Source: an uncultured Cytophagia bacterium | GTDB lineage: Bacteria > Zhuqueibacterota > Zhuqueibacteria > Thermofontimicrobiales > Thermofontimicrobiaceae | Direction of reading: 5' to 3' | NCBI GenBank assembly: GCA_964472785.1 | Contig: CAYYMH010000004.1 | Location: forward strand, 389-64,388 | Length of the DNA stretch: 64,000 bases | Shown here: positions 19,201 through 35,811 of the stretch, one piece after another | Position numbering within the stretch: position 1 is the stretch's first letter | How the letters are laid out: each line of letters opens with the position of its first letter | Translations under genes and position numbers: made by a program | The notes under the pieces: generated by a model | What the model saw: the letters and a program-made list of their open reading frames with translations, nothing else | What the model was told of the DNA's origin: nothing | The model's database searches: none

Positions 19201-20317
19201 CCAAGGGGTACAATGCTTTAGGTATATAATCTAAAACAGTCTCTTCTGTGAGTAATGTCATGTCTCTGTCAAGCAGAAAATTCACCATTTTCGCTGGCAG
19301 TGTGTCATTCAGAGAAGATTTCAGACCAGGTCTGCACCATTCAATAATACATTTGAACTTTCCATCTTCTAAAAAATTACCATACAATCTATTGTAACTC
19401 ACACGGCCGACATCAAGAGCTGGACCGATTTCATCCAACATTTTCTGAATGATCTGATCTTCCTTCAACGATTTATCCGAAGCCAATTTCCATAAATTTG
19501 CCCGGAGCACATTATGCCGATTTTGTCGAGCAAGGTATTGTTGCGCTTTTCTTCTCTCTGTATTATCCTGGAAAACGAGCACCACTCCGGTAATTTCCTG
19601 CTTGTCATTCATAATTGGTGATGCATTCTGAAGTATCGGGCGTTTGGTTCCATCTTTTGAAACCAACAAAGTCTCATTCGCCAGATCGCCTGTGGTTTTC
19701 TGATTGATCAAACTTTTTACAGGATCGTCAAGGATTGCACCGGTTTTCTCATGAATAATTTTAAAAACATCACTCAGATCATTATCCAACGCGTCAATCT
19801 GCTTCCAGCCGGTCAATTTCTCTGCAACCGGATTCAAAAATCTGATTTTTCCCTTTTTATCGGTTGCAATAACACCGTCCCCAATACTCTTCAAGGTAAT
19901 GGATAACCAGCGCTCATTTTCTTTGAGCTTTTTGTCCATCTTATGTTTATACAGCGCCATTTCAATAGTCGATGCCAGCTCCCGCTCTTCAAACGGCTTA
20001 AGTACATACCCGAATGGTTCGGTAATCTTTGCCCGTTCCAGTGTATCGTCATCGGCAAAAGCAGTCAAGTAAATAACAGGAATATCGTGCTCTTTCCGGA
20101 TAATATCCGCAGCTTCAATTCCATCCATTTCTGATCGGAGATGAATATCCATCAAAATCAGGTGGGGCGATAGCTTACCGACCTGTTTTACAGCTTCCTC
20201 CCCGGTTGCCAGCGTTTTAACAACTTCATAACCTAAATTTTCCACCCGGTCCTGAATTTCCAAAGCAGTGATATTCTCATCTTCAACAATCAATATTTTA
20301 CGTTTCTTCGACATCAT
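16205..20317 (-). CDS. Cytoplasmic hybrid kinase REC-PAS-GAF-PAS-PAS-GAF-PAS-HisKA-HATPase-REC (CckA/NtrB-type H-box)
   Basis: QKMEAIGTLAGGIAHDFNN, DPYFTTK, GAGMGL; receivers at both termini. Confidence 0.92.
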   Translation of the reverse strand: MMSKKRKILIVEDENITALEIQDRVENLGYEVVKTLATGEEAVKQVGKLSPHLILMDIHLRSEMDGIEAADIIRKEHDIPVIYLTAFADDDTLERAKITEPFGYVLKPFEERELASTIEMALYKHKMDKKLKENERWLSITLKSIGDGVIATDKKGKIRFLNPVAEKLTGWKQIDALDNDLSDVFKIIHEKTGAILDDPVKSLINQKTTGDLANETLLVSKDGTKRPILQNASPIMNDKQEITGVVLVFQDNTERRKAQQYLARQNRHNVLRANLWKLASDKSLKEDQIIQKMLDEIGPALDVGRVSYNRLYGNFLEDGKFKCIIEWCRPGLKSSLNDTLPAKMVNFLLDRDMTLLTEETVLDYIPKALYPLAKPIIKSFIKKYDLESVLIVPYYQNGELEGILSFDVCRKKDREFEWTDDLKSLIGEAVGIVTNYIAQKRGEEALRESEERFRTLIQTSPDRIFIKDQFRAYTHVNPAMEKRLGKSSSEIRGYTDDELFSAEKAKKIRDADLKVLQGEIISEELTEIVNNQRKTFHIVKAPMRSHAGKIIGLCGISRDITERKKAEEALKENEERFRTLFESSAIGIALIDLINKTTQFNPAFQKMVGYSEDELKKLNMKKISDPDDYKTEEKLFWELIEGKRESYQIIKPFIRKDKKVVWAILTSSLFKDASGTPKFVFGMIQDITEQKRSQEIQEVLYEISEAVNVTGNLQELFKSIQNHLGRVIDTTNFYIALYNQKNKSITLPYHVDEKDKFKEFPIGKTFTSYVIKTKKPLLATHDRMKEMVKEGVVEIVGELSKVWMGVPLKTGRDVIGVIALQSYKDESLYTKEHLKILEFVSDQIALAIERKKAEEERVRLATAINSAAEAIIITDENATIQYVNPAFEKTTGFSYDEAVNKTPNIIKSRKHSNSFYKDLWDTISTGKTWTGRITNKRKCGTLYEEDVAISPIFDDRGKIINYVSVQRDVSEHLEMERKLRQAQKMEAIGTLAGGIAHDFNNIVGAISGYTELALDDVVNEPTKDYLKQVMKASQRAKDLIKQIVAFARQSEKERVPLQISLIVKEALKLLRASLPSTIEIKHNITAKSSLVLADPIQIHQLVFNLCNNAAYAMKEKRGILDVGLKEVEISKEDAKQFQELKPGRFVKLSVRDTGQGIDSQIMDRIFDPYFTTKKSGDGAGMGLALVHGIVKIHNGEITVYSELGIGTTFNIFLPLTEKKGVKESKDIEEGPEDGEGCILFVDDEKSLVESNRIALERHGYKVVSTTSSLQALKIFKRNPDKFDLVITDQTMPKMTGKELASKILNIRPDMPIFLCTGFSDVIDEKRAAKMGIKAFLEKPLFRNELLKNIGDVLNKRNGNSDSASKVMKKK

Positions 20318-20323
20318 AAACTC

Positions 20324-23299
20324 CTATTTTCCAAATTTATCGTTAAATGAAATTTGAAAAACTGTTCCTGGTACATTCACCAATTCAATTTCTCCGTTCA
20401 ACTGATCAACCAGGGCATTAATCAATTTTAGACCTAATGTTTGCGCATTTCGCACATCAAAATTCTCCGGTAAACCAACGCCCGTGTCCCCAACCTGAAG
20501 CAGATATGTTTGACGATTGTTTTTCTTAAATGAAATATTGATCTCTCCCTTACAATTGCCCGGAAAAGCATATTTTAGTGAATTTGAAACCAACTCGTTA
20601 ATAATTAATCCACAGGGGATCGCCATATCAATATTCAAACGAATATTTTGAACATCCAAATTTAATTTTACTTTTTGATAGTTTGTTGAATATGAATTAA
20701 AAAGAGACCGCGTAAGCTCTCTAATATAAGTAAAAAAATTGATTTGAGCAAGGTTTTTTGATTGATATAGTTTTTCATGAATTAAAGACATCGATTGAAT
20801 TCTATTTTTGCTTTCCTGAAAAATATTGAGCGCCTGTTCCTCATTGATATTTTTTGATTGAAGGTATAAAAGCGAGGAAATCACCTGCAGGTTGTTTTTA
20901 ACACGGTGATGTATTTCTTTTAACAGCACATCTTTCTCCTTTAATGACGCTTTTAACTGTTGCAGTGTCTGTGTGCATTCGGTGATGTCTAATATTTGTG
21001 CGATGGTTTTTATTTTATTGTCTGTGCTCTTCACAATCGCTGAACTGATCTCAACCCGCCTTTTTTCTCCTGATTTGTGAATCACATTAAATTCATATCT
21101 TGAAGGAACCGCGATACCACGCTGTCTGTTGATATAATTTCGGATAACAAGATTTTTGCTCTCCTCATCCAAATGATTTCGAAAATCCTCACCCAACAAT
21201 TCCTGCTGAGTATAGCCTAAAATTTTTGTCAATTGTTCATTCATATATTCAAACCGGAAATTATCATCAACAATCAAAATACCGCTATGAGAATTCTCGA
21301 CAATAGAGCGATAGCGTTCTTCCGATATTTTTAAGGCAGCCTGCGCCTCCTTCCATTCAGTAATATCTCTGACAATGGCTAATACTTCATTATGATTTTT
21401 ACTCACCAATCTGGCTTCCTGGTGGGTCAATTTATCATCGAGCAAAAGCTGATATTCATATTTCTGCAATTTCCCGGTTTTGAGAGCTTTTTTAATATGA
21501 TTCATCGTTAGCCTTGCCAATGTTTTCGGCAAGACATCAGCGATGTTTTTACCAACAAATCGGTCAGGAGGAACGTATAATTTCTCCGGATTTGGCGCCC
21601 GATAATCAAGAAACACGCCATCGCGATCCAGCCGGAACATTAAATCCGGTATCGCTTCCAATATCGCCTTATTCTGATATTCGCTCTTCAGGAGTGCTTG
21701 TTCCGCTTTTTTATTTTCGGTTACATCTTTGAGGTAAACCAGATCAGCCTTGCCGGAATTAAACGTTATTAAACTGGAACGAATCTCGACAATTAATTCC
21801 TTATTATCCGCTGTTTTGATCATCGTTTCGAAAACCGGTTCAGTCGATTCAACGTTTATTTTTCTTTTTAAAAATGTTAAAATATGGGGGATTGTGTTTC
21901 GATGAATGAACTTTTTAAATGGTTTATTTAGGATTTGTTCTTTCGGAAGACCTAACATTTCGCATACACGTTCATTGACAAAGCGTATTTTCAAGTTTTG
22001 CACTATAGCGATGCCGTCATTTGAACGTTCGACAACTGTTCGGTATTTCTCTTCACTTTCTTTTAACGCTTTTTCAGCTAATTTTCGCTGATGAATTTCC
22101 AGATGGGTACCGACCATTCTCCTTGGTTCGCCGTTATCTTTTCTGGCGACAACTTTTCCCCGGTCCAAAATCCAGATCCAATTTTCGCCCTTTCCCCGCA
22201 AACGATATTCGCACTCAAAGAATGGTGTCTTTTGTTGTAAATGACGTTCCAGAGCATCACTAAAAAGCTGGCGGTCGTTGGGATGAACTTCATTTTCATA
22301 ACCTTTGAAACTGATCACCTTTTTTAAATAAGAATCCATTGTAAATCCAAGCATGGACGCAAACCGCTCGTTGTAAATTAAAACATCCTTTTTAATCTGC
22401 CAGTCCCACATTCCTAATTCCGCACCGCTCAGTGCAAGTTCTAATCTGTCCTGACTAATCAATAAAGCTTTTTCAGCCTTCTTAAGCTCACTGATGTCAT
22501 GCAAGACTCCTTGTATCGCAGTCATTTCCTCATCATCTATTTGGCTGTAATCCATTTCCGCATCAAATAGAGAGCCATCTTTTTTTCGAGCCTGAAAAGT
22601 AACTTTATCAAAATCGTGATCCGAAAAAGATGCAGCGTTTTTAAAATGACTGAGAAATTGGTCCCAATCATCCTGAGCCATTAGTTGTTCAAATTGCATC
22701 CCAATGATCAAATCCGGATGTGAAAAGCCAAACATCTGTGCAAAACACATATTACAATATTTCAACTCATAATCTTGCATGATAAAAATACCGGCTCTGA
22801 CCCGCTCAACAATAGGTTTGTAAAGCGAAATGGGTAAGTCAATTTTATCCTGTTTTGTTGAATCATCATCTTTGAGATTAGTCTTTGATACTTGATTTAC
22901 TAACTGACGATATTTTCTTTCAATTTCATAATGATTTAGCAACTTATCAAGTAACGGTGTCAAACGAACTCTATTATTTTTAATAACATAGTCATCAACA
23001 CCATTGTTCATGTATTTGATTGCTGTTTCTTCATTCGATGCCTCAACAAGCATCAAGCAAGGAATTTCATGTTTTTTCTTATTAAATACTGAAGCGAACT
23101 CTGCACAGAACCCGTTTAATGATTCAGCATCAACAAAAATAATATCGTAAAGATGATTGTTTATTTTCGTTTCAAAATCGTTTAAATTAGCAACCTGAGT
23201 AAAGGTTGGTTGATAACCATTTTTTCCAATTTCATCATTTAGTACGTTCAGTTCATCTTCAGAAGAACCAACAAACAGTATCCGGATGTCGCGCTCCAT
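20324..23299 (-). CDS. Multi-PAS HisKA_2-family histidine kinase with degenerate N-terminal receiver
   Basis: [27 protein letters not shown], about five PAS domains. Confidence 0.9.
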   Translation of the reverse strand: MERDIRILFVGSSEDELNVLNDEIGKNGYQPTFTQVANLNDFETKINNHLYDIIFVDAESLNGFCAEFASVFNKKKHEIPCLMLVEASNEETAIKYMNNGVDDYVIKNNRVRLTPLLDKLLNHYEIERKYRQLVNQVSKTNLKDDDSTKQDKIDLPISLYKPIVERVRAGIFIMQDYELKYCNMCFAQMFGFSHPDLIIGMQFEQLMAQDDWDQFLSHFKNAASFSDHDFDKVTFQARKKDGSLFDAEMDYSQIDDEEMTAIQGVLHDISELKKAEKALLISQDRLELALSGAELGMWDWQIKKDVLIYNERFASMLGFTMDSYLKKVISFKGYENEVHPNDRQLFSDALERHLQQKTPFFECEYRLRGKGENWIWILDRGKVVARKDNGEPRRMVGTHLEIHQRKLAEKALKESEEKYRTVVERSNDGIAIVQNLKIRFVNERVCEMLGLPKEQILNKPFKKFIHRNTIPHILTFLKRKINVESTEPVFETMIKTADNKELIVEIRSSLITFNSGKADLVYLKDVTENKKAEQALLKSEYQNKAILEAIPDLMFRLDRDGVFLDYRAPNPEKLYVPPDRFVGKNIADVLPKTLARLTMNHIKKALKTGKLQKYEYQLLLDDKLTHQEARLVSKNHNEVLAIVRDITEWKEAQAALKISEERYRSIVENSHSGILIVDDNFRFEYMNEQLTKILGYTQQELLGEDFRNHLDEESKNLVIRNYINRQRGIAVPSRYEFNVIHKSGEKRRVEISSAIVKSTDNKIKTIAQILDITECTQTLQQLKASLKEKDVLLKEIHHRVKNNLQVISSLLYLQSKNINEEQALNIFQESKNRIQSMSLIHEKLYQSKNLAQINFFTYIRELTRSLFNSYSTNYQKVKLNLDVQNIRLNIDMAIPCGLIINELVSNSLKYAFPGNCKGEINISFKKNNRQTYLLQVGDTGVGLPENFDVRNAQTLGLKLINALVDQLNGEIELVNVPGTVFQISFNDKFGK

Positions 23300-23357
23300 C
23301 TGTTTCCTTTATCTTTTCTAAATAATTTGAAAAACTATAATCCGCCTTGATCTGGAT

Positions 23358-26300
23358 TCACGAATGTTGTTTATCTTTTTCAGCATTTTTATCACGAAAA
23401 CATATTTGAAATTCTGTTCCATAGTCAGTATTAATATTGATGGTGCCGCCTAACTGACTCGCCAGGGTTTCGACCAACTGCAGACCAAGTGTTTTTCTTT
23501 TATGTCCCAAAATTTCTTTTTTTACACCAATTCCGTTGTCGCTGACAATAAGTTTAAATGTATCCGGTTTTCGCTTTTTGAAAATAATTTTTACTTCGCC
23601 TTCTTTCGATTCAGGAAAGGCGTACTTCAGCGCATTAGAAACGAGCTCATTAATAATCAATCCGCAGGGGATGACCGAATCGATGCTCAGATTCATTTTT
23701 TTGATTTCCAATACAGCTTTAATTTTTAGCTGATCTACGCTATATGAACGGTACAGGTAACGAACCAGATCTTCGATATATTGTTTAACGTCAATCTTAG
23801 CTAAATTATTCGACTGGTAAAGTTTCTCATGCACCAGGGACATAGACCGAACCCGGTTTTGGCTCTCTCTGAAAATCGCTAATGTATTTTGCTCATTCAC
23901 ATTTTTTGATTGGAGATAAAGCAGAGAGGAAATGATCTGTAAATTGTTTTTCACCCGATGATGAATCTCTTTCAATAATACGACTTTCTCTTCAAGAGAG
24001 CTTTTCAGCCGTTCTTCTGCTTGCTTCTTCTCAATTGAAAGTCCGATTTGATCTGAGGTGAATTTCAATATTTCCAGTTCCTCAATTCCAAAAGCGGTTT
24101 CATCGTCATAGCTTTGCACCGCAATAACACCGATAACCTCGTTTTTTGCTTTTAGCGGGACCCCGAGCCAGATTTTTATTTGGCTGGGATTTGTTTTAAT
24201 TTTACCCTCTTTTACCATTCGCTGTATTTTTTCTCTGGTTAACAACATGGGTTTTTCATGCTTAATCACATAGCCGGTTAATGTTTTTCCGGCAGGAAAC
24301 ATTTTAAAATCGTCTTTCTCACTTTTATAAAATTCGAGTGAGATCATGTCCGTACTTCTATCGTACAGCGAGATTGAAAAGTTTTGGGTATCTAATACGT
24401 TGCTTAATTCATATTCAATTGCCTTGAACAACTCATTCAGATCCTGAGTCATTAAAACCGCGTTGCTTATGTTATAAACAAGTTCTTGAATTTTTTCGGC
24501 ACGCTTACGAAATGTGATATCTCTGAATACAATTTGAGAGGCTGGTTTTCCATGATAAATAACGCGGGCTCCCGCTACTTCCACATCGATGACTTTGCCA
24601 TCCCTTCTGATAAATTTTTCTTCGATCAGGGAAACCGGGGTCTTTTTAACTTCCAGATGTTTGGTTCTTTTTTGAGTGAGCTGGCGAAAATCCGGATGCA
24701 CAAAAGCTAAAAATGGTTTACCCAAACATTCCTCTTCCGATTTAATTTTCAATATTTTCATAGCTTCATGATTCACATAAACCACTCGTCCCTGGCTATG
24801 TACCAAAATCGCATTTGGAGACTCATGAGCAAGACTTTTGTACCGTTCCTCACTTTCCCGTAATGCCTCTTCTGCTTTTTTTCGTCCTGTAATATCGGAT
24901 ATTTGAACAAGAAAGTACTGGGGATCGCCATTGTAATTTCGTATGAGTGAGGCTCTTAAAATACCACAAACAACATTCCCGTCTCTTTTGATAAACCTTT
25001 TTTCGATTTCAAATTCTGAAATCTCCCTTGATAATAATTTCTGTTGCAACTGATTGACGTGATCCCTATCGTAAGGATGCGTATGGTCGGCAATCTTCAT
25101 TCTTTTCAATTCAGTCTCATCAAATCCCAGTGTTTTACAATAAACATGATTCGCTTTGGCGATTGTATGATCTAATCCCACCAAAGCAATACCAACAGGC
25201 GCCAATTTGAAAATTGAACGAAAGTGTTCTTCACTTTCCTGTAATGCGCCTTCCATCTTTTTTCGTTCTGAAATATCCTGAATGACAACATAAACCAGCT
25301 TTCTTCCGTAAACATCAATCGGACCAGAATAGGTCTCCACATTCCGAATTTCACCGTTGGCAAGGCGATGTTTAAATTCAAAAATATTTTTATTCTCCAT
25401 TCTCCCTTTTGCCATTTGCTCGCGAACTTTTTCCGGCGGTAATGTATTTAAATCCATGATGGTCATGTTTAACAGTTGCTCTCTGGAGTAACCATAATAT
25501 TCGATAGCTGCTTCATTGGCATCAATGATGGGAAGATTTTTGTCTTTAACATCAATCAATAATATGACACCCTGATTTTTCATAAACAGCGAATGGAAAA
25601 TCGCTTCCCGTTCTTTAATTGCATTTTCTATTTGCTTTCGTTTCGTAATTTCTTCAAAAGTACCCATGTACAGAGAAGGTTCTCCCCGATCATCCGTAAT
25701 AAGTGTTGCGTTTACCCGAACATCAAAAGGTGATCCGTCTTTTCGAATACCGACAAGTTCACCAACCCATTTGCCATGGCGCAAAATTTCATCAATGACT
25801 CTCTTCGCCCTTTTCTTGCTCTGCCAGTACTTGATACCATAGGTTCCAAGAATTTCATCTTCCCTTGAGTATCCCCACATGTCCAGCATCGCCTGGTTGA
25901 CATAGGTTAGTTTTCCGCTTAAATCCTCAATTCCGATCCCATAAAGCGAGGATTGAAATGCGATGTCCTTAATTTTTAATTCATGTTCCGCCTTTTTTTG
26001 CTCTGAAATATCCGTAAGTGATAACAAAGCACGCGAAAAATCTTTCTCGTGTTCCGGTAAAATTGTTAATTTGAGAATGACAATCTTTTCCTCTCCCGAT
26101 AACGTTCTGATTCTCAATTCACGTTTGAATTTAAAGTTACCCTCGAAAAGTTGAATAACTAAGTCTTTAAAATGATTAATTGAATTTTTATCAAATATGA
26201 CAGACGGATGTTCGATAATTTCTTTTTTGGTCGCTGCGTTAAACAACTCCAATGTGGCGCTGCTCATGTCTAAAATCTTTATCACGGATAAACAGGTTTC

Positions 26301-26879
26301 CGCAGCATCAGGATTGTTGTCAAAATAGGCTTTAAAATCCTTTACATTGTTATTTTTTAAAAAGCTGATGAAAGCTTGAATGCCAGAAATATCAACTTCT
26401 AATAAAGGCACTGGCGATTCATCAAAAAGCATTTGGTATCGTGATTTATTTGTTAGAATTCGATTTTTAAGACTTTGAGGATTATCTTTCCAATTCTTTT
26501 CATTCAATACTTTTTCCACCGCTGGTTTCAGTTTCATCATTTCATCTTCAAATACATAATCTCTTTCATTGACATTGATGGATGTTACAGTTAATTCTTC
26601 ATCAAGATTTTTGGATACAAAAATAAACGGCGCTTTCATTCGATTTTTATCAGTAATTTCCATTGCCCTTATCCGTTCACAATTATAAGAGTTAGAATTC
26701 GCGATAACAAGATCACAGTTTCTGTGTTTTGAACCGACTGTGATCTCCTCTTCGGAAGCCAGCTTAATATATTCAAACCGAATATCTTCCTGATCCAACT
26801 CTTGCATGATACGTGATATATCCTGATCCGACTCTTCGATAATTAGAACCTGAAAATCATTGCGCATTAACTTTTTCAT
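23358..26879 (-). CDS. Multi-PAS/GAF HisKA_2-family histidine kinase with pseudo-receiver
   Basis: [28 protein letters not shown]; PAS repeats and a GAF. Confidence 0.9.
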
Positions 26880-26991
26880 TGAATGAGACTCTCTCTAAAA
26901 ATTTTCTGAAATATTTTATCCCCCATTTTCTTTATTTTGAATTAACATCCAAAAATATCAATTTCGAAAAACGACCTTGTTGCTTTTTATA

Positions 26992-27399
26992 TCAAGATTT
27001 ATCAGACAAAACACTCACTTTATCAGCTGCATTTGATAACGCTTTTTGAATCATGGTTTTGAGTTCATCTTCTTCAAAAGGTTTTATGAGATATAATACC
27101 GGGTCAGAATTCAATCTCGCCCGATCCAGCGTTTCCTGATCTGTATAAGCAGTGAGATAGATAATCGGAATTCGCCTTCTTTCCCAGATTCTTCTGGCAG
27201 CCTCCACACCGTCAATTTCGCCTTTTAAGCTAATATCCATCAAAATAATGTCCGGCCTGAGTTGATCTACCATCTCTATTGCATTTTCACCTGAAACAGT
27301 CATTCCGGGTACATCATATCCTAAACCTTCTAATCTATCCTTAATCTCCATACCAATGATATTTTCATCTTCAACAATCAAAACTTTTTTGGGTGCCAT
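26992..27399 (-). CDS. Single-domain response regulator
   Basis: VEDE, LMDI, LTAY, KPF; GAGGAG RBS before ATG 27399. Confidence 0.9.
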   Translation of the reverse strand: MAPKKVLIVEDENIIGMEIKDRLEGLGYDVPGMTVSGENAIEMVDQLRPDIILMDISLKGEIDGVEAARRIWERRRIPIIYLTAYTDQETLDRARLNSDPVLYLIKPFEEDELKTMIQKALSNAADKVSVLSDKS

Positions 27400-27509
27400 T
27401 GGTAATCTCCTCATGCGTTAACGTAAATAAGCATAAATGTTAACAAAAAATTAAGTCACTGTGTTCCATTATTATTATTTTTAAACATACTTTATTTTCC
27501 ACGATATTA

Positions 27510-29027
27510 TTAAACAGGTAATGAAAAATAAAAAGTTGCTCCAATCTTTTCATTACTTTCTGCCCAAACGTTTCCACCGTGCCGGTGAATGATTCTTTTC
27601 ACAGTAGTCAACCCGATACCATTACCCGGAAAGTCAGAATTTTTATGCAGCCGCTTAAACGGTGCAAATATCTCTTGGCTGCTCGTTTGATTAAAACCCA
27701 CTCCATTATCTCTGACATAAAAAGCGGGTTCCGCAATATGGTTTCTCAACCCGAATTCAATCCTTGTTAACCGATTTTTTTTAGTGAATTTCCATGCATT
27801 TTCAAACAGATTTCTCAACACATAATTTATAAGCCGATGGTCACCATAGGCTTTTAAGCCATTTTGAATTTCAAATTCCGCTTCTCGTTTTGGATCGGTT
27901 TGTTTAAGGTGATGAGAAATTAATTTTGCTATCTTACTCAAATCAACCTCTTTAACATCCAGTTTACTCAGATTAAATCGAGAAAGTGACAAGAAATCAT
28001 CGATCAAACCAAACATGTTTTGGATGGAATGTCGAATTCTGTTTAAATAATGCCTGGCTTCACTGTTCAAATTTTCCAAATGCTCGTCAATCAACAATTG
28101 TGAAAATCCATCGATCCTGATTAACGGTGCTCTCAGATCATGGGACACGGATGAAGTAAAAGCCTCAAGTTCTTTATTCATTGCTTCAAGCTGAGCAGTA
28201 CGATTCCGGACTCGTTTTTCCAGTTGGCGATTCAATTCTCGAAGTTGCTTTTCAGCCTCTCGCTGTGGAGTAATGTCCTTTACGCCAAGAATCAACCCGA
28301 TAATTTGTTGGTGCGAATTTTTAAAAGGATATGCATTTACTGCAATCTGTTTAACCGAATTGCTTTTTTCTGAAATAGTATACTCAGTTTTTTGAGGCTG
28401 ACCCGTTCTTAACGTAATTCGTGACGGACAATTCGCGCAAGGTTTCGACTGATTTTTTAGAATCTGGTAGCATTTTTCTCCGTGGAGTGGTTGTCCGTTT
28501 TTAAATTGATCAGACATCCACCGGTTAACCCGGATAATATTGAAATCATTATCAATTACACAAATGCCCTCTTGAACAGAATTAAAAACATCTAGTAAAA
28601 ACCGTTCACGAAGCTGCAGATCTTTTAAAACCAGTTTCTGCTGTTGTTGCGTTTTGCGGTGATTGAATTCCCGATGAATTATTGGAAGAAGTCGCTTTAA
28701 ATCTGATCTCGTAATAAAATCGATAACTCCATAACCGAACGCATCAACGGAAATGTCTTGAATGACATGATTACTAATCAGAACGATGGGAACTTCTTTC
28801 AGATGACAATGAATCGAGCGGAGAAATGTTAACTGATTTTTTTCAATCAAATCATAATTCAGGAAGACAAAATCCAAGGAATGATCGTCCACAAATTTGT
28901 GGATATTACTAAATGTTTGAACGCGTTGCCAGGTTACCCGAAATTTTCCGGACTCAAGCGTTTGAACAATTTTGTCCACAAATTTTGCCGACTCCCCGAC
29001 AAAAAAGACTTGCAGTGTTTTCCCCAT
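27510..29027 (-). CDS. Pseudo-REC-PAS histidine kinase
   Basis: SVSHDLRAPL, NLFENAWKF, DNGVGF, GNGIGL; PAS with CY...PCxxCP. Confidence 0.88.
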   Translation of the reverse strand: MGKTLQVFFVGESAKFVDKIVQTLESGKFRVTWQRVQTFSNIHKFVDDHSLDFVFLNYDLIEKNQLTFLRSIHCHLKEVPIVLISNHVIQDISVDAFGYGVIDFITRSDLKRLLPIIHREFNHRKTQQQQKLVLKDLQLRERFLLDVFNSVQEGICVIDNDFNIIRVNRWMSDQFKNGQPLHGEKCYQILKNQSKPCANCPSRITLRTGQPQKTEYTISEKSNSVKQIAVNAYPFKNSHQQIIGLILGVKDITPQREAEKQLRELNRQLEKRVRNRTAQLEAMNKELEAFTSSVSHDLRAPLIRIDGFSQLLIDEHLENLNSEARHYLNRIRHSIQNMFGLIDDFLSLSRFNLSKLDVKEVDLSKIAKLISHHLKQTDPKREAEFEIQNGLKAYGDHRLINYVLRNLFENAWKFTKKNRLTRIEFGLRNHIAEPAFYVRDNGVGFNQTSSQEIFAPFKRLHKNSDFPGNGIGLTTVKRIIHRHGGNVWAESNEKIGATFYFSLPV

Positions 29028-29593: not shown

Positions 29594-32572
29594 CTACAAA
29601 AACCGAACTTCAAACACCGTCAATGTCACAGCGCCGAATTCCTGTTCCACTTTTCCTTTGAGGACATAGGGACGGGAATGACTGAGCATGTAACAAAACT
29701 TTTTGTAGGTATTGGGAAAGAAAACCGTTTCATAAATGGCTGTGGTATCTTCAAAACTGATAAATTCCATCATTTCATTGTTCTTCGTGCGGGTCATTTT
29801 CCGGGTTACCAGCCAACCAATGGTGACCACTGTTTTGCCGACATAGCCGGACAAATTTTTCGCTTTCACGTAGCAGAGTTTTTCAATTTTTTCCTGATAA
29901 AGGGATAACGGATGGCGACTGATCAAAAAACTCAATGTTTCGCATTCATGTTGCAGTTGGGTTTCGGAATCATAATTTGCCGAACGTGGCAAAATTTTGG
30001 GTTGGTCATCAAATAACGACAGGGTGCTGTTGGATTTTTTGACCTTCTGATTCTGATGTTGCAGCATTTGCCACATCAATTCGGGACGCGTGCGACGAGG
30101 CTCAATTTCATCGAACACGCCGGCTTTAATTAAAATTTTCGCATCATTGGGAACAATGTCAACCCGGTCGAGAAAATTCTTAAAAGATCGATAGGCGCCA
30201 TTTCTCCGTCTCTCCTCCAAAATCTGGTTCACGGTTTCCCGCCGAATTCCTTTCAATTGCATTAAACCGACGCGCACCTGTTTGTCTTTTCCGGTGTAAT
30301 GCCATTCGCTTTTGTTAATCTCGGGCAGCAGCACTTCCAGCCCCATGCGCCGGGACTCCGAAATATAAGCAAAGGTCGAATAATAACCACCCTGATTACT
30401 AATCACCGCAGCAATAAATTCCGCCGGGTAATGCGCCCGCAGATAACACGATTTGTAAGACACCATAGCAAAAGACGCCGAATGCGGTTTGCAAAAGCTG
30501 TAACCTGTAAAACTCAAAATCATTTCCCAAATCCGCTCGATGGTTTGATGATCCACACCGTTTCGACGCGCACCACGGAAGAATTTTTCTTTGAAATCAT
30601 CCATTTTCTTCCCGATACGCTTTTTGGAGAGAATGCGGCGCAAATCATCTGCTTCAGCCGGATCAAAACCAGCTAACGCGATCGCGACTTTGGAAACATC
30701 CTCCTGATAAATCATGATGCCGTATGTTTCTTTTAAAATATGTTCCAGCAACGGATGCAACGGATCGTACTTTTCACCATGAAGACGTTTCACATATTCA
30801 CGGATGTAATCATTTGCTGCCGGACGAATGATCGAGCTGTGAATCACCAGGTGACCAAAATCTCCGGTTTTCGCCTTTTTCTGCAACAACCGCATCGCCG
30901 GTGATTCCACATAAAATACGCCAATGGTCTCCCCGTCCCGAATCAACGCCTGGGTTTTCGGGTCGTCGAGCGGATTCCACAGTTCGTATTGAATGTCCAC
31001 ATCATAATTTATTTTAATTGCCTCGAGCGCATCCCGAATAACAGCCAACGAACGATTGCCCAGCAGATCGATTTTTACCAAACCAGCTTCTTCGGACTGA
31101 TCTTTTTCCCACTGAACAATATTTACTCCTTTTGGCGCCGGTTCGGTGGCAACGTATTCGTTAATATGATTGGGCGTGATCACTACCCCCCCGCAATGCA
31201 CGGACAAATTTCGCGGACAGCCCTGTAATTTTTCAGCCAATGAAAATATCTCTTTCCACTGCCCGTCAAAATCATGATGGCGATACGCCGGATGGTTAGC
31301 CACTAATTCCCGCACCCGATCCGCCCGATAAAAGCCGGATAATTTTTTGGTGACAAGATTAATTTCAGTCTCGGGCAAACCGTACACTTTGGCAACCTCT
31401 CTCACAGCAGCCCGCGCTTTGAATCCCACGTGATTCGCGATCATGCCGGTGCGATGAACACCGTATTTTTTAAACACATAATCCAAAATATCATCCCGCT
31501 CATCCCAGGGAAAATCCACATCAATGTCCGGCGGGTCTTCTCTTCCCATGTTTAAAAAACGTTCGAAAAACAGATTTTGCGTAATCGGGTCAACGTGGGT
31601 GATTTCTAAACAGAAAGCAACAATACTGGCTGCCGCAGAACCGCGTCCGCAGGTGCGCTGCGACTGTTTAACGATGTCCTGCACCACTAAAAAATAAGGC
31701 GCAAACCCTTTGGTCTTAATAATTTCCAATTCATAATCCAGCCGCTGTTTGACCGCGTCATTTATTTCTCCGTAGCGCTTTTTTGCACCCTGATCGCAGC
31801 TCTTTTTTAACACGTCAAATGCCTGATCATTTTTAAAACCATTAAATTTGGGAAAAATAGGTCCGTTAAAATTCAGATCGTGCACACATTGATCAGCAAT
31901 TTTTCGAGTGTTCTCCAATGCGGCTTGACAATCCGGAAATACCTGCTCCATCTGTTTCGGTGTCTTGAGCCAAGCGCTTTTCGGTGCCAATTCGTTGGTA
32001 TCCAGTTGGGGAATTGACGTATTGCAATCAATGGCTCGCAACAGCCGGTGCAGCGGAAAATCTTCCGGGTTGATGAAGTGGACATTGTTGGTGGCAACCG
32101 GAGGAATGCCACTGGAACGCGCATATTTTATTAGCGAAACACGTCGCGGTCCCGGCTGAATTTCAACAAACAGCTTGCCGGGTGAAATTTTGGATCGAAG
32201 TAAATTGAGCAACGGAATGGAATCGGTCAGCAAAAAAAGGCCTTGCTGAAAATGAATCAGAACGTCCAAAAGAGAAAAATCCTTGTCTTGATGGCGCAGT
32301 GAAATAATCCGGCATAGATTGCTGTAACCCTGCCGGCTTTTCACCAATAACAACACGCGCAATCCACCAGACACAATTTCGGCTCCGATAATCGGCTTGA
32401 TGCCCACCTCTTTGGCAATTTGCAGAAACCACACCAAACCATACACGCCGTTGGTATCGGTCAACGCAATCGTATCAAAACCGCGCTTTTTTGCCGCCAG
32501 ACATAAATCTTCAATGGAATTCGCTCCCCGACAAAACGAATAATGGCTGTGGATATTGAGATGGACAAACAT
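29594..32572 (-). CDS. dnaE2: Error-prone DNA polymerase III alpha (DnaE2/ImuC-like)
   Basis: PHP domain (HLNIHS), GRGSAA, PPDIDVDF, KIDLLG, YSFCKPH, C-terminal OB fold; lies downstream of lexA and imuB. Confidence 0.88.
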   Translation of the reverse strand: MFVHLNIHSHYSFCRGANSIEDLCLAAKKRGFDTIALTDTNGVYGLVWFLQIAKEVGIKPIIGAEIVSGGLRVLLLVKSRQGYSNLCRIISLRHQDKDFSLLDVLIHFQQGLFLLTDSIPLLNLLRSKISPGKLFVEIQPGPRRVSLIKYARSSGIPPVATNNVHFINPEDFPLHRLLRAIDCNTSIPQLDTNELAPKSAWLKTPKQMEQVFPDCQAALENTRKIADQCVHDLNFNGPIFPKFNGFKNDQAFDVLKKSCDQGAKKRYGEINDAVKQRLDYELEIIKTKGFAPYFLVVQDIVKQSQRTCGRGSAAASIVAFCLEITHVDPITQNLFFERFLNMGREDPPDIDVDFPWDERDDILDYVFKKYGVHRTGMIANHVGFKARAAVREVAKVYGLPETEINLVTKKLSGFYRADRVRELVANHPAYRHHDFDGQWKEIFSLAEKLQGCPRNLSVHCGGVVITPNHINEYVATEPAPKGVNIVQWEKDQSEEAGLVKIDLLGNRSLAVIRDALEAIKINYDVDIQYELWNPLDDPKTQALIRDGETIGVFYVESPAMRLLQKKAKTGDFGHLVIHSSIIRPAANDYIREYVKRLHGEKYDPLHPLLEHILKETYGIMIYQEDVSKVAIALAGFDPAEADDLRRILSKKRIGKKMDDFKEKFFRGARRNGVDHQTIERIWEMILSFTGYSFCKPHSASFAMVSYKSCYLRAHYPAEFIAAVISNQGGYYSTFAYISESRRMGLEVLLPEINKSEWHYTGKDKQVRVGLMQLKGIRRETVNQILEERRRNGAYRSFKNFLDRVDIVPNDAKILIKAGVFDEIEPRRTRPELMWQMLQHQNQKVKKSNSTLSLFDDQPKILPRSANYDSETQLQHECETLSFLISRHPLSLYQEKIEKLCYVKAKNLSGYVGKTVVTIGWLVTRKMTRTKNNEMMEFISFEDTTAIYETVFFPNTYKKFCYMLSHSRPYVLKGKVEQEFGAVTLTVFEVRFL

Positions 32573-32604
32573 TGCTGCACCAGATTCCTTGTTAAATTCC
32601 ATTT

Positions 32605-33759
32605 TCAATTACGAGCAAACTTCACCGCTTTTTCACCAAACCGTTGCCGAATCCGATCCACTGCCTGGTTCAACTGATGTTCCAGTGCACATTTTTTCGA
32701 TTCATCAAACAGCGAAAGCTGCCTCGAGAGCGGACGCAGGTCAAAATAGCGCACTCCGATTCTTCGCACCCGAATGCGTCGCGTCAAAATTTTTTTCAAC
32801 AAGGAATCGGCAGTGACAAATAATTGTTGATCCAAATTGGTGTTGCCGGGAAGTTTTCTCTGCCCGCTTGCCTGTCGATGATCGGCGTAATCAATTTCCA
32901 AAATCATTTTTCGCGCCACTTGAAATGTACCCCGCAACTGTTGCCCGACCTGTTCCACCAATCGAAACAAAGCAGCTCGAATTAATCCGATGTCATTGGT
33001 ATCCTCAGCCAGTGTCTGCTGCTCATAAATATTGGGCAACTGGTGAGGCGGAAAAACCGGCGTGTTATCAATCCCCCGTGCCATCCGGTGCAGTTTCAAA
33101 CCCACTTTTCCAAATACCATCGTCAAATGCGGCACCGAAAGACTGGCGACATCTCGGATGAAGCAGATGTTCAGTTCGGTCAACTGTTTTTTCACCATCC
33201 GACTGATTGCTGGCAAATGGTAAATCTTGAGCGGGGCAATGAATTGTTGCTCAGTCCCGGCATGCACATCCTCAATACTGGCAGGACCGCTAATCTCCGA
33301 TGCGATCTTACTCACCAATTTATTACTCGCCACGCCCAGACTGGTCGGCAAAAAAACGCTGCTTTCAATTTCCCGCTGAATCTTCCAGGCTGTGTCCACC
33401 GGAACGCCAAACAGCCGGGACGTGCCGGTCACATCGAGATAGGCATGGCCATAATTTACCGGTTCGATGAGCGGAGAAAATTGAGCAACGATTTTCATCA
33501 TCGCCTGCATGGCGCGGCTGTACAACGGTTCGTTGGGCGGAATCACCGTCACATCACGGCATTGACGGAGCGCCTGGCGCAGCAGCATTCCCCGATAAAT
33601 TCCTGCCTGGCGCGCTTCCGTTGACGTGGAAAACACCACACTGCGATCAGTGTCAGGATAAGCGACAATGACCGGACGGTCACGCAACGCTCTGTTTACT
33701 ACTCGCTCCACCGATACCGGAAATGAATTCACATCAATATGTAAAATCTGGCGGTTCAT
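32605..33759 (-). CDS. Y-family polymerase homolog lacking the catalytic DE pair (ImuB-like)
   Basis: ILHIDVNSF, EARQAG, NKLVSKIAS; SIDE site reads NYGH; QLSLF clamp motif; start set at ATG 33759. Confidence 0.85.
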   Translation of the reverse strand: MNRQILHIDVNSFPVSVERVVNRALRDRPVIVAYPDTDRSVVFSTSTEARQAGIYRGMLLRQALRQCRDVTVIPPNEPLYSRAMQAMMKIVAQFSPLIEPVNYGHAYLDVTGTSRLFGVPVDTAWKIQREIESSVFLPTSLGVASNKLVSKIASEISGPASIEDVHAGTEQQFIAPLKIYHLPAISRMVKKQLTELNICFIRDVASLSVPHLTMVFGKVGLKLHRMARGIDNTPVFPPHQLPNIYEQQTLAEDTNDIGLIRAALFRLVEQVGQQLRGTFQVARKMILEIDYADHRQASGQRKLPGNTNLDQQLFVTADSLLKKILTRRIRVRRIGVRYFDLRPLSRQLSLFDESKKCALEHQLNQAVDRIRQRFGEKAVKFARN

Positions 33760-33793
33760 ATTTGCGTTAACTGTTTTAATTTTAAAAAAATGG

Positions 33794-33879
33794 TCAATGA
33801 TCAACGGTTAATTGTCAATTGATAATTACAATCTATTTTTCATTAATCATTGACAATTGAACATTTACCATTGACAATT
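33794..33879. repeat. 86-bp heptad-periodic hairpin repeat, copy A
   Basis: TCAATGATCAACGG...CATTGACAATT, near-identical to 34327-34412 and 34426-34511. Confidence 0.92.
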
Positions 33880-34251
33880 AAAAAAACCCACCTCATCGCT
33901 GCCGTTTACCTGCGGTGCGAATACGGCATTGATTATTTTCGCCAATTCTGCATTTTCATCACAGATTGACTGTAGTTTAATTTGCGAAATCATCTTACTT
34001 CGCTTAAGAATTTCCAGCCAGATAAATGACTCATTGAGCTCCTTCAGAACAACACCCAGTTTGTGTACAAAATCGTTTTTGCTCTCAGCCGCTCGCGCCT
34101 CTCCGTAGTTGGGAGCAGGCGATGTTCCTGAACGCAGTAACTGCCTTGCAATGTGTTTTCCCGCTTGAGTCTTCGGCAAAGAAGATGTCAGCCCAATAAT
34201 GAGCACCGCAAAATTTATCATTCGCTCCTGAATATCGTCGCCTTTCGCCAC
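33865..34251 (-). CDS. Four-helix bundle protein (23S rRNA IVP / Avd-like family), with apparent 3' frameshift
   Basis: QLLRSGTSPAPNYGEA..AES..DFVHKL...LKELNES..WL; GAGGAGGGAGG RBS before GTG 34251. Confidence 0.88.
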   Translation of the reverse strand: MAKGDDIQERMINFAVLIIGLTSSLPKTQAGKHIARQLLRSGTSPAPNYGEARAAESKNDFVHKLGVVLKELNESFIWLEILKRSKMISQIKLQSICDENAELAKIINAVFAPQVNGSDEVGFFNCQW

Positions 34252-34269
34252 GTGCCTCCCTCCTCTTTT

Positions 34270-34511
34270 CATTAACAATTAAAAATTGACCGTTCACTAT
34301 TGACAATTCAAAAATAAAAAAAACGATCAATGATCAACGGCTAATTGTCAATGGATAACCACAGTCTATTTTTCATTAATCATTGACAATTGAGCAATTA
34401 CCATTGACAATTTAAAAAAAAACGATCAATGATCAACGGCTAATTGTCAATGGATAACCACAATCTATTTTTCATTGACAATTGACAATTGATCATTTAC
34501 CATTGACAATT
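34270..34511. repeat. Half copy plus two tandem 86-bp heptad hairpin repeats (B and C, 99-bp period)
   Basis: Right-arm-only copy ~34270-34308; full copies at 34327-34412 and 34426-34511, separated by A tracts. Confidence 0.92.
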
Positions 34512-34523
34512 AAATCAAAAAAG

Positions 34524-35162
34524 TCACTGCACCTGCTCCCGAATCAGCGCCAGCACTCTTCCCTGCAACGACCAGGGCTCCTGTGGGCGAATATCAGAAT
34601 ATTGTGGATTTTCAGGTTTTAAAAAACGATCTTTTCCATCATCAACCAATCGCTTTACCGTGACTTCATTTCCGATCAGCGCCACCACAATATCTCCGTT
34701 TTTGGCTTCGGAGGTTGACTGTACAATCACCAGATCGCCATCATGAATACCGGCATTGATCATACTGTCCCCCTGAACATGCAATGCAAAACAGGGCTGT
34801 TTTTCATTGACCAGATAGTGGGGCACGTAAACATAGCGTTCGATATTTTCCTCGGTCAGCACCGGCGCTCCGGCAGTCACTGTACCCACCAGCGGTAATT
34901 CGAGTCCCTGAAAAGCATCAAATTCATAAGCGTTATTAAGGGGGTGATTCAGCCGTTTTAAAATCCGAATATCCCGCGCCTTGTTCGACCGTTCGATGTA
35001 ACCTTTTTTCACCAGCGCATCCAGATGAGCCAGCACAGCGTTTTTTGAGCCCATACCCAACTCTTCACGGATTTCTTCCAACGTCGGAGGAACGCCATCG
35101 CCCTCAATTTTTTGATCGATGACCTCCAACACTCGCGCCTGTTTTTCCGTTAATTTTTTCAT
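34524..35162 (-). CDS. lexA: LexA repressor
   Basis: LTEKQ...PPTLEEI HTH, TAG cleavage site, GDSM serine, TVKR lysine. Confidence 0.95.
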   Translation of the reverse strand: MKKLTEKQARVLEVIDQKIEGDGVPPTLEEIREELGMGSKNAVLAHLDALVKKGYIERSNKARDIRILKRLNHPLNNAYEFDAFQGLELPLVGTVTAGAPVLTEENIERYVYVPHYLVNEKQPCFALHVQGDSMINAGIHDGDLVIVQSTSEAKNGDIVVALIGNEVTVKRLVDDGKDRFLKPENPQYSDIRPQEPWSLQGRVLALIREQVQ

Positions 35163-35183
35163 AGCACGCTCCTTTATTACTAT

Positions 35184-35257
35184 ACATTAATTAAGTTAAT
35201 TTATGTTAAGTTAACTTTTGTACAGTATAAATATACATTATTTTTGGAAAAAGTCAA
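35184..35257 (-). promoter_or_regulatory. lexA promoter with candidate operator palindromes
   Basis: TTGACT-N16-TATATT (35257-35230); ACATTAATTAA-G-TTAATTTATGT (35184-35206); AAGTTAACTT (35208-35217). Confidence 0.5.
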
Positions 35258-35311
35258 GGGAAAAATTTATCACAATCAAAAAGTGACTCAAAATTTTCAA
35301 GATTATTTTCC

Positions 35312-35340
35312 TTGTATTATTTCAAACAATTTGCTATATT
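35312..35340 (+). promoter_or_regulatory. Candidate hicBA promoter
   Basis: TTGTAT-N17-TATATT with TGn extension. Confidence 0.45.
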
Positions 35341-35383
35341 AAAGTGAGTTTCTGGAAAGACAACCTATTATGAGGAGCAAAAA

Positions 35384-35590
35384 ATGAGGCAAGTGATCAT
35401 TTATCCGGGCGAAGATGGATATTGGGTAGCAGAATGTCTCTCTTTACCTGGCTGCTTAAGCCAGGGGCGAACCAAGGAAGAAGCCATCACAAACATTCGC
35501 GAAGCAATTGAAGTCTACATTGAAGCATTGAAAGAAGATAATCTCGATGTACCGGAAGATAAATTTGAATCCGTTGTGGTAGCAGTATGA
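35384..35590 (+). CDS. hicB: HicB-family antitoxin (short, no DNA-binding domain)
   Basis: LPGCLSQGRTKEEAITNIREAI; GAGGAG RBS. Confidence 0.9.
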   Translation: MRQVIIYPGEDGYWVAECLSLPGCLSQGRTKEEAITNIREAIEVYIEALKEDNLDVPEDKFESVVVAV

Positions 35591-35811
35591 AAAAATTGCC
35601 TGTGATCTCCGGAAAAAAATGTGTTCGCGCCCTCGAAAAAACTGGTTTTTTTGTTAAACGCCAATCAGGTAGTCACATCATCATGAGAAGAGATAATCCA
35701 TTTTCTCAAGTTGTTGTACCCGATCACAAAACATTAGATAGAGAAACGTTGCGAGCAATTATAAAACAGGTAGGAATGACTGTTGATGAATTTATCTATT
35801 TGTTAAAATAA
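35587..35811 (+). CDS. hicA: HicA-family mRNase toxin
   Basis: RQSGSH, VVVPDH; ATGA overlap with hicB. Confidence 0.9.
   Translation: MKKLPVISGKKCVRALEKTGFFVKRQSGSHIIMRRDNPFSQVVVPDHKTLDRETLRAIIKQVGMTVDEFIYLLK

Follow-up and report, generated by a model that had tools for sequence, protein, structure and literature searches.

A PF05635 gene framed by inverted heptamer arrays between lexA and imuB, and the apparently undescribed cassette architecture to which it belongs

Introduction

Between lexA and the genes of two mutagenic polymerases, an uncultured Cytophagia bacterium carries a small gene of the PF05635 family that is enclosed by inverted arrays of heptamers. The cassette belongs to a widespread and apparently undescribed architecture, which links the intervening sequences (IVSs) of 23S rRNA to the heptamer repeats of bacteria. 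On balance we lean towards reading it as a selfish cassette of the IVS type, co-transcribed with its host operon and repeating the design of a 23S rRNA IVS outside rRNA. The stretch of DNA that was analysed, 64,000 nt of contig CAYYMH010000004.1 (assembly GCA_964472785.1), is referred to as the window throughout.

Two lines of earlier work meet at this locus. To our knowledge, the function of the S23p protein and the mobility of the IVSs that encode it have been an open question since the 1990s. The S23p domain was still called functionally uncharacterized in 2024 (PMC11270868, available in part). The other line concerns an excess of heptanucleotide repeats in bacteria, which is noted and left unexplained in the accessible portions of PMC4692102 and PMC4679880. 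The former describes tandem, intergenic heptamers in Xanthomonas (GGGAATC) and Nostoc, the latter heptamer repeats in Beggiatoaceae (TAACTGA), cyanobacteria (STRR) and Bacteroidetes. In the open literature we found no paper linking heptamer arrays to the PF05635 family, and a mention in older IVS papers or supplements, for example on Leptospira or Xanthomonas, is possible.

The lexA–imuB junction of the window

In the window the spacer from lexA to imuB measures 764 nt and reads in sense order, on the minus strand: unit 3, unit 2, half unit R', ribosome-binding site, 128-aa gene, unit 1 (Table 1). The match upstream of lexA is the sole strong minus-strand promoter match in 33600-35450. Further out, upstream of lexA and divergent from it, is a HicB-HicA toxin-antitoxin pair (35384-35811, plus strand; HicB_lk_antitox 34.9 and HicA_toxin 68.7 bits), and three very large PAS/GAF histidine-kinase genes, a response regulator and another kinase follow downstream of dnaE2 (16205-29027, minus strand). 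As had been noted at first sight, there is no transposase, integrase or reverse transcriptase (RT) among the ORFs at 16-50 kb of the window. An Rfam search of 33000-35500 returned no rRNA and a single match far below the gathering score, and LSU rRNA was not found in the 93%-complete assembly.

Table 1. Features at and around the lexA–imuB junction, in window coordinates
Feature	Position	Strand	Evidence or remarks
dnaE2-like DNA polymerase III alpha gene	29594..32608	-	DNA_pol3_alpha 248.5 bits; PHP, finger, HHH_6
imuB-like Y-family DNA polymerase gene	32605..33759	-	IMS 132.1 bits, IMS_C 60.4, IMS_HHH_1 30.9
Hairpin unit 1	33784..33880	-	arms R1 33837-33879 (overlaps 3' end of the gene) and L1 33789-33831; then U7 on the sense strand
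Four-helix-bundle gene (PF05635 / TIGR02436), 128 aa, GTG start	33865..34251	-	profile matches
Ribosome-binding site GAGGAGGGAGG	34255..34265	-	read from sequence; 3 nt upstream of the GTG
Half unit R', upstream arm of the gene	34266..34308	-	inverted partner of L1 across the gene
Hairpin unit 2	34312..34413	-	arms 34327-34358 and 34370-34413; then U8 on the sense strand; 91% identical to unit 3
Hairpin unit 3	34414..34518	-	arms 34426-34457 and 34468-34515; then U9 tract on the sense strand
lexA	34524..35162	-	Peptidase_S24 114.4 bits, LexA_DNA_bind 70.3 bits
Sigma-70-like promoter match upstream of lexA, TTGACT-16-TATATT	35230..35257	-	10/12 positions; consensus match only

The first-pass annotation had proposed a four-helix-bundle gene with a strong ribosome-binding site of its own. 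Gene and binding site are both borne out, while the start of the gene had to be moved to the GTG at 34251, with the stop at 33865. The protein matches PF05635 with 57.1 bits (cut-off 33.8), TIGR02436 ('four helix bundle protein') with 78.5 bits (cut-off 24) and PDB entry 2RLD over residues 5-112 (E=3e-18), and it does not match NF033474, the equivalog model of Avd. As a member of PF05635 the gene is ordinary. Going by the family name, its product would adopt a four-helix bundle, and it may form a pentameric ring by analogy with the family member Xcc0516, which forms pentamers as cited in the available part of PMC4990558. Compared with a ~96% variant from the metagenome of another study, codons 1-110 show 14 synonymous differences and one non-synonymous, which indicates that the domain is under purifying selection. 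The last ~5 codons overlap the right arm of unit 1; in this comparison a 1-nt insertion shifts the tail beyond codon 110, so the C-terminal tail running into the repeat is not conserved.

Three hairpin copies plus a half unit, complementary arms and a heptad rhythm had been recognized by eye, and all of these are recovered computationally, the full units measuring ~99 nt. Direct copies of 120 nt lie at 33767, 34300 and 34399, the latter two 85% and 80% identical to the first, and the 54-nt right arm occurs four times (33837, 34266, 34370 and 34469; 76-80%). There are 15 inverted pairs, for example 33789-33831/33837-33879 (43 nt, 74%) and 34410-34457/34468-34515 (48 nt, 71%). TRF reports period 7 with consensus ATTGACA and 4.4-5.4 copies per right arm (33849-33879, 34382-34412 and 34474-34511), together with a 99-nt period repeated 2.5 times at 34266-34522. 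With at most one mismatch, the core 11-mer CATTGACAATT matches the window 16 times, against 4.74 ± 2.35 in shuffles, and 13 of these matches fall in 33789-34511. The gene had also been described as bounded by direct repeats. These are present, but the arrangement is better read as an inverted pair, L1/R', plus an extra copy: L1 (33789-33826) and R' (34270-34308) enclose the ORF with a score of 36, above all 1498 random placements.

Folded as sense RNA, units 3, 2 and 1 reach -30.2, -28.9 and -23.4 kcal/mol (z -4.71, -4.29 and -2.09), and the plus strand -25.2, -19.7 and -20.3. As terminators the units would offer sense hairpins with energies from -23 to -30 kcal/mol and a U7-U9 tract behind each, yet they are AU-rich with large loops, and a simple terminator scan did not call them. 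The fold of the whole junction favours long-range pairing among the arms, and local hairpins are therefore not assured.

Could the repeat array or the position of the gene result from misassembly of the metagenome bin? In the probable source run, public contigs end within units 2-3, and one unit is missing from a contig of another sample, perhaps truly, perhaps through assembly collapse. However, a 34-kb contig of the probable source run extends from imuB past unit 1, the gene and R' to reach unit 2, and a second contig, of 9.4 kb, joins unit 3 to lexA; both back the position of the gene. The 48-nt piece common to the two contigs, and to units 2 and 3, has about double depth, and the second study's variant comprises the gene together with a flanking arm. 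An artefact is hardly credible. In run X5, a 160-nt contig shows a 634-nt 'skip', which was considered as an empty allele and rejected: it is most simply a left arm aligned to another left arm.

The same junction in relatives

The imuB orthologue was located in relatives and 30 junction loci were examined by tblastn. In this comparison of filled and empty junctions, which had been suggested, the window locus is the only one of the 30 with the four-helix-bundle gene. Distant relatives have lexA and imuB 15-40 nt apart without such an element, and relatives of the same family have a gene-less spacer of 128-368 nt. Heptamers of the ATTGACA/ATTCACA type occur at three junctions (G004, G005 and G012), another holds a run of TGGTTAC (G003) and yet another a hairpin of a different heptamer type (G008). 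This variety of heptamer elements points to a junction that has been occupied by such elements repeatedly, and among the genomes searched the gene is retained there only in the window genome.

Other features were seen at these junctions. In a relative of the same order (G014, locus L048) the junction spans 742 nt and holds an unrelated ORF of about 130 codons and no heptamer element. G008, G013 and G009 (loci L042-L044) share a conserved stretch of about 100 nt immediately before imuB (…CATGACGACAC…GAGCGGGAA…GAAATGGGGCGCTTC…); this stretch, which is absent from the window, is perhaps a leader or regulatory RNA.

Further heptamers and PF05635 genes in the genome

A genome-wide search for the repeat and for co-occurring genes had been proposed as a check. 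The full hairpin unit has three copies in the genome, all at the window locus, and a few half units of the window type lie elsewhere, on contigs C78, C44 and C20, the last upstream of a gene. The genome holds six PF05635 matches, and five of the six genes have flanking inverted repeats scoring above all 1498 random placements; the copy on contig C35 falls below by strict pairing. By eye, four of the genes other than that in the window are framed by short-period inverted arrays of their own, such as GGTTCAG/CTGAACC on contig C65 and TTGTTAAT/ATTAACAA on contig C55. Eight of the 22 period-7 arrays with at least four copies in the whole genome lie beside three PF05635 genes. The cassette copies within the genome have diverged from one another and bear no trace of recent copy-and-paste. 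A TTGGTCA array at C20:39421 was set aside as a chance occurrence in a coding region.

The two RTs of the genome are found on contigs C11 and C65 only. On C11 (37589-38841) a weak PF05635 match adjoins the RT, its inverted repeat is non-tandem and arrays are absent, so we take this gene to be the Avd of a retroelement. C11 and C65:16400-21700 are two probable diversity-generating retroelements (DGRs). On C65 the RT and a heptamer-framed PF05635 gene are 3 kb apart; the contig also has two gene 3' ends that are nearly identical, with AACCC-type heptamers behind each.

Heptamer arms without the gene were observed in several settings. At C78:12246-12360 a gene-less pair of window-type arms lies between two tRNA genes and beside an SRP RNA gene; this tRNA cluster is a stable-RNA operon and in that respect resembles the rRNA setting of IVSs. 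At C44:33196-33520 window-type arms enclose a stretch of ~240 nt with four GC-rich stem-loops and no gene, and the G012 lexA–imuB junction (L039) holds a multi-hairpin stretch that resembles it. Rfam gave no family for either cargo region, and on C78 only tRNAs and the SRP RNA. The multi-hairpin stretch is possibly an alternative, non-coding cargo.

Within a CRISPR array with a 37-nt repeat on contig C49, two copies of a ~145-nt element with heptamer arms (CGGAATG ... TCCGAAA) lie at 27980-28125 and 28230-28370, where they replace one spacer and a portion of a repeat, apparently after insertion of the element into the array. Contig C72 ends in a GGTTTTGGGTTCAG/TTTAGGG heptamer array (17525-17598), and many PF05635 matches in relatives sit at contig ends. 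Judging from these contig ends, heptamer arrays probably break short-read assemblies, and the PF05635 family is probably under-counted as a result.

Gene and heptamers move together

Relatives of the window protein at E<=1e-8 are found in 59 of 125 genomes of the class. The closest published homologues, 62-69% identical, come from six genomes (G124, G115, G112, G010, G037 and G038), the identity being 61% and 54%, with an in-frame stop, in G037 and G038; two closer homologues from unpublished genomes were left out of the comparison. The heptamers that flank the closest homologues (AATTGTC, AATTGAC, AATGGTC, AAATTGT) are of the same family as those in the window. Their neighbours represent five unrelated neighbourhoods: GH16/symporter, SpoIIE/GntR, ABC ATPase/permease, TonB receptor/phosphatase and a cNMP-binding protein. 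SOS genes were not found among them.

How far does the heptamer follow the protein? Between pairs of loci in different contexts, the heptamer agrees within one mismatch in 30.8% of cases at a protein identity of at least 70% (26 pairs), in 14.0% at 60-70% (13/93), in 6.0% at 50-60% (890 pairs) and in 1.2% below 30% (1718 pairs). A Ruminococcus bin and Thiohalocapsa halophila, for instance, both have AGTGGTT at 60% protein identity. In-frame stops interrupt 21 of the 128 PF05635 matches in relatives. The gene and its heptamer arms are inherited as one unit, and the cassette is found at unrelated positions in other genomes as well as in viral contigs.

The architecture across phyla and viruses

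Searching species genomes with an alignment built from typical members of the family gave 596 relatives, of which the best 80 were examined. These 80 come from Bacteroidota, Acidobacteriota, Pseudomonadota, Planctomycetota, Verrucomicrobiota, Clostridia, Elusimicrobiota, a candidate-phylum bacterium and an archaeal bin. At 59 of these 80 diverse loci the inverted repeat in the flanks scores above the null's 99th percentile, compared with 9 of 1021 shifted windows, and the other 21 have no clear one. Their 39.9 kb of flanks contain 93 TRF arrays, 64 of them with period 7, and 186 kb elsewhere contain 32. A crude ORF call puts both neighbours in the orientation of the gene at 58 of the 80 loci and both opposite at four.

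Combining the best 80 of the 596 with the six loci of the genome itself, 29 from relatives and 27 class loci yields 142 pooled loci. An array of period 5-9 lies within 220 nt at 121 of them, on both sides at 74, and 21 are without an array. Among 195 pooled arrays, 160 have period 7 and 27 period 8. At the 74 two-sided loci the upstream consensus is the reverse complement of the downstream one, with at most one mismatch, in 50 cases and directly identical in 12. Arrays stop a median of 50 nt before and begin 47 nt after the Pfam match, so that the loop contains little besides the ribosome-binding site and the ORF. The period-7 arrays peak at 4.0-5.0 heptamers (59 of 160), with a median of 33 nt. 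An RT lies within ~1.5 kb of a single PF05635 locus out of the 142, and that locus has no arrays. All of these counts overstate, and they are descriptions rather than tests, because kin are not independent.

Among the 29 loci from relatives, 19 have an inverted-repeat score above 26. At HicA control loci of the same relatives such a score is reached at none of 29, and arrays are present at one of 29. On viral contigs, 47 of the 58 testable loci have an inverted repeat and 48 of the 58 have arrays, with period 7 in 73 of 85 arrays. The array architecture is specific to the PF05635 family.

The arms have a polarity. In 58 of 60 aligned pairs the sense-upstream arm is G-rich, so that, the repeat being inverted, the G-rich strand runs inward on either side. 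Aligned arms are only ~83% complementary, and over 2564 columns from 63 loci the 442 mismatches comprise 90 that are G:U-compatible on the sense strand, 112 on the antisense strand and 240 of transversion type. With no excess of sense-strand G:U, selection for a sense-RNA stem is not shown. RNA duplex energies of the 150-nt flanks were uninformative, controls being nearly as low. Two other roles for the heptamers were considered and dropped. If they served to stop translation in three frames, stops should be enriched, yet a sense stop occurs in 43 of 80 consensus units from the upstream side, against 41.2 ± 3.8 in shuffled ones; and as Shine-Dalgarno mimics, 6 of 80 qualify.

Relation to known elements

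The IVSs of 23S rRNA that encode S23p, known from Coxiella burnetii and Leptospira, resemble the window element in having a PF05635 ORF within an inverted-repeat stem loop, as far as the accessible accounts go. According to the available text of PMC4990558, the Coxiella IVS is a selfish element without a recombinase, has a 28-bp stem of terminal inverted repeats with the S23p ORF in the loop, and is cut by RNase III in the stem. The same text describes GACAGAT heptamers in tandem ahead of the ORF, two or three depending on the strain, which adds a likeness to the tandem heptamers beside the ORF in the window. In contrast to the IVSs, the window element lies between protein-coding genes rather than in helix 25 or 45 of 23S rRNA, and it has a strong ribosome-binding site and extra, gene-less hairpin units. 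RNase III cutting, reported for rRNA IVSs, is putative for the window element.

Avd, the accessory protein of DGRs, is a small, basic four-helix bundle of the same PF05635 superfamily, and this relative of the PF05635 proteins binds nucleic acid. Unlike Avd, the window gene has no RT nearby and leaves NF033474 unmatched. The pairing of REPINs with RAYTs offers another likeness: a single-copy gene flanked by its cognate hairpins, gene-less hairpins elsewhere, and a repeat type that follows the lineage of the gene. However, the protein in the window is no Y1 transposase, its hairpins consist of tandem heptamers, and they have few copies per genome. TRAP is a ring-shaped homo-oligomer of 11 subunits, which reads short tandem RNA triplets, one per subunit, and thereby chooses between RNA hairpins. 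It is an analogy only to a putative PF05635 ring; the fold is unrelated, and 11 subunits with triplets stand against heptamers.

The repeats of Xanthomonas, Nostoc, Beggiatoaceae and the STRR type often have about four units and lie close behind the upstream gene, like the window arrays, judging from the accessible parts of the papers. In X. campestris, 70 cases of two nearby convergent repeat sites are reported among 186 repeat patterns (PMC4692102, partial text), which is the polarity seen in PF05635 arrays. These repeats differ in being mostly gene-less and numerous, and the accessible portions of the papers draw no link to a four-helix bundle. '23S rRNA IVP' is also named among CRISPR-array-associated proteins (PMC10910872, in the part available); our guess is that this may reflect heptamer arrays mistaken for CRISPR arrays.

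What kind of element is it?

The first-pass annotation had offered two explanations, an undescribed repeat-guided mobile mini-cassette or an attenuator gating the error-prone polymerase. The former stands in its general form, with gene and heptamers in unrelated neighbourhoods, gene-less junctions in relatives and no recombinase near. 'Undescribed' applies in part: the architecture is apparently undescribed, but the design of the Coxiella 23S IVS had already been reported (PMC4990558, partial text). In an IVS-type cassette, the lexA promoter would drive the cassette transcript along with the operon, and the heptamer arms would pair in the transcript into a stem of ~30 bp. RNase III, for which the genome has one gene, would cut this stem as it does in rRNA IVSs; the cassette mRNA would thereby be released and lexA parted from the imuB/dnaE2 messages. 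The two extra units and unit 1, each a hairpin with a U tract, could act as partial terminators, and any effect on the error-prone polymerases would be collateral. The IVS-type model does not explain the preference for 7 nt or the polarity with the G-rich arm first.

In another reading a homopentamer would bind its own arms as RNA or ssDNA, each subunit taking one heptamer in the manner of TRAP, and so would control arm pairing, its own expression or the spread of the cassette. The peak in array size at 4.0-5.0 heptamers would suit the pentamers of the family (Xcc0516; PMC4990558, as available), the heptamer type tracks the protein phylogeny across contexts with a fixed period and a free sequence, and the relative Avd binds nucleic acid. 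But only 13 of 93 pairs at 60-70% identity keep the heptamer within one mismatch, so that recognition would be either loose or fast-evolving, and the size peak could equally reflect a preferred stem of ~30 bp. We consider such binding unlikely, and it is compatible with an IVS-type cassette rather than exclusive of it. Alternatively the hairpin might be mobile at the DNA level, its ssDNA arms being cut and joined by a recombinase in trans as in REPIN/RAYT, IS200/IS605 or integron attC, with the gene as an accessory. This would accommodate the gene-less hairpins of the same type on C78, on C44 with its 240-nt cargo and at the junctions of relatives, the heptamer-armed element inside the CRISPR array, an arm polarity alike on both strands, and the ten Y1-transposase matches in the genome. 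None of nine examined Y1-transposase places is heptamer-flanked, however, except one beside the C11 retroelement; integrase and transposase are absent in 16-50 kb of the window, and the full unit has just three copies genome-wide. The orientation bias of the ORF and its purifying selection moreover imply that the protein matters, and a DNA-level hairpin is in our estimate quite unlikely.

The attenuator leads to a last alternative, namely that array and protein evolved as a dedicated regulator gating imuB and dnaE2 after lexA, or that the repeats are LexA operators. The position inside the lexA–imuB–dnaE2 operon fits this idea, as do the sense-strand U tracts behind all three hairpins and the lack of a strong promoter match between the units and imuB. 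Against it, the gene and its heptamer type also occur in non-SOS contexts, and the 15-40-nt junctions of distant relatives do without the element. Operators were rejected, as ATTGACA heptamers are absent upstream of lexA and the repeats flank homologues in non-SOS contexts. As the purpose of the element, attenuation is unsupported because the same cassette type occurs in non-SOS neighbourhoods, and we give a dedicated SOS role very little credence. Judged from the sequence, the units with their hairpins and U tracts may nevertheless damp read-through into imuB/dnaE2 as a side effect.

Conclusions and outlook

A broader proposal can be put forward tentatively, although in its full extent we hold it to be rather unlikely. 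PF05635 genes with inverted heptamer arrays would form one self-contained, unrecognized class of selfish cassettes in bacteria and viruses, with rRNA IVSs as one habitat, and would account for part of the heptanucleotide-repeat excess. A pentameric ring would read about five heptamers, one per subunit, as RNA or ssDNA, controlling arm pairing and promoting spread, perhaps via an RNA intermediate like Avd.

The survey joins two open puzzles, the function of S23p and its IVSs and the unexplained excess of heptanucleotide repeats. It also defines a small unit for experiments: one protein of 128 aa and two arrays of ~32 nt. In this genome, lexA and the mutagenic polymerases have a passenger between them, whose transcription would accompany the SOS response.
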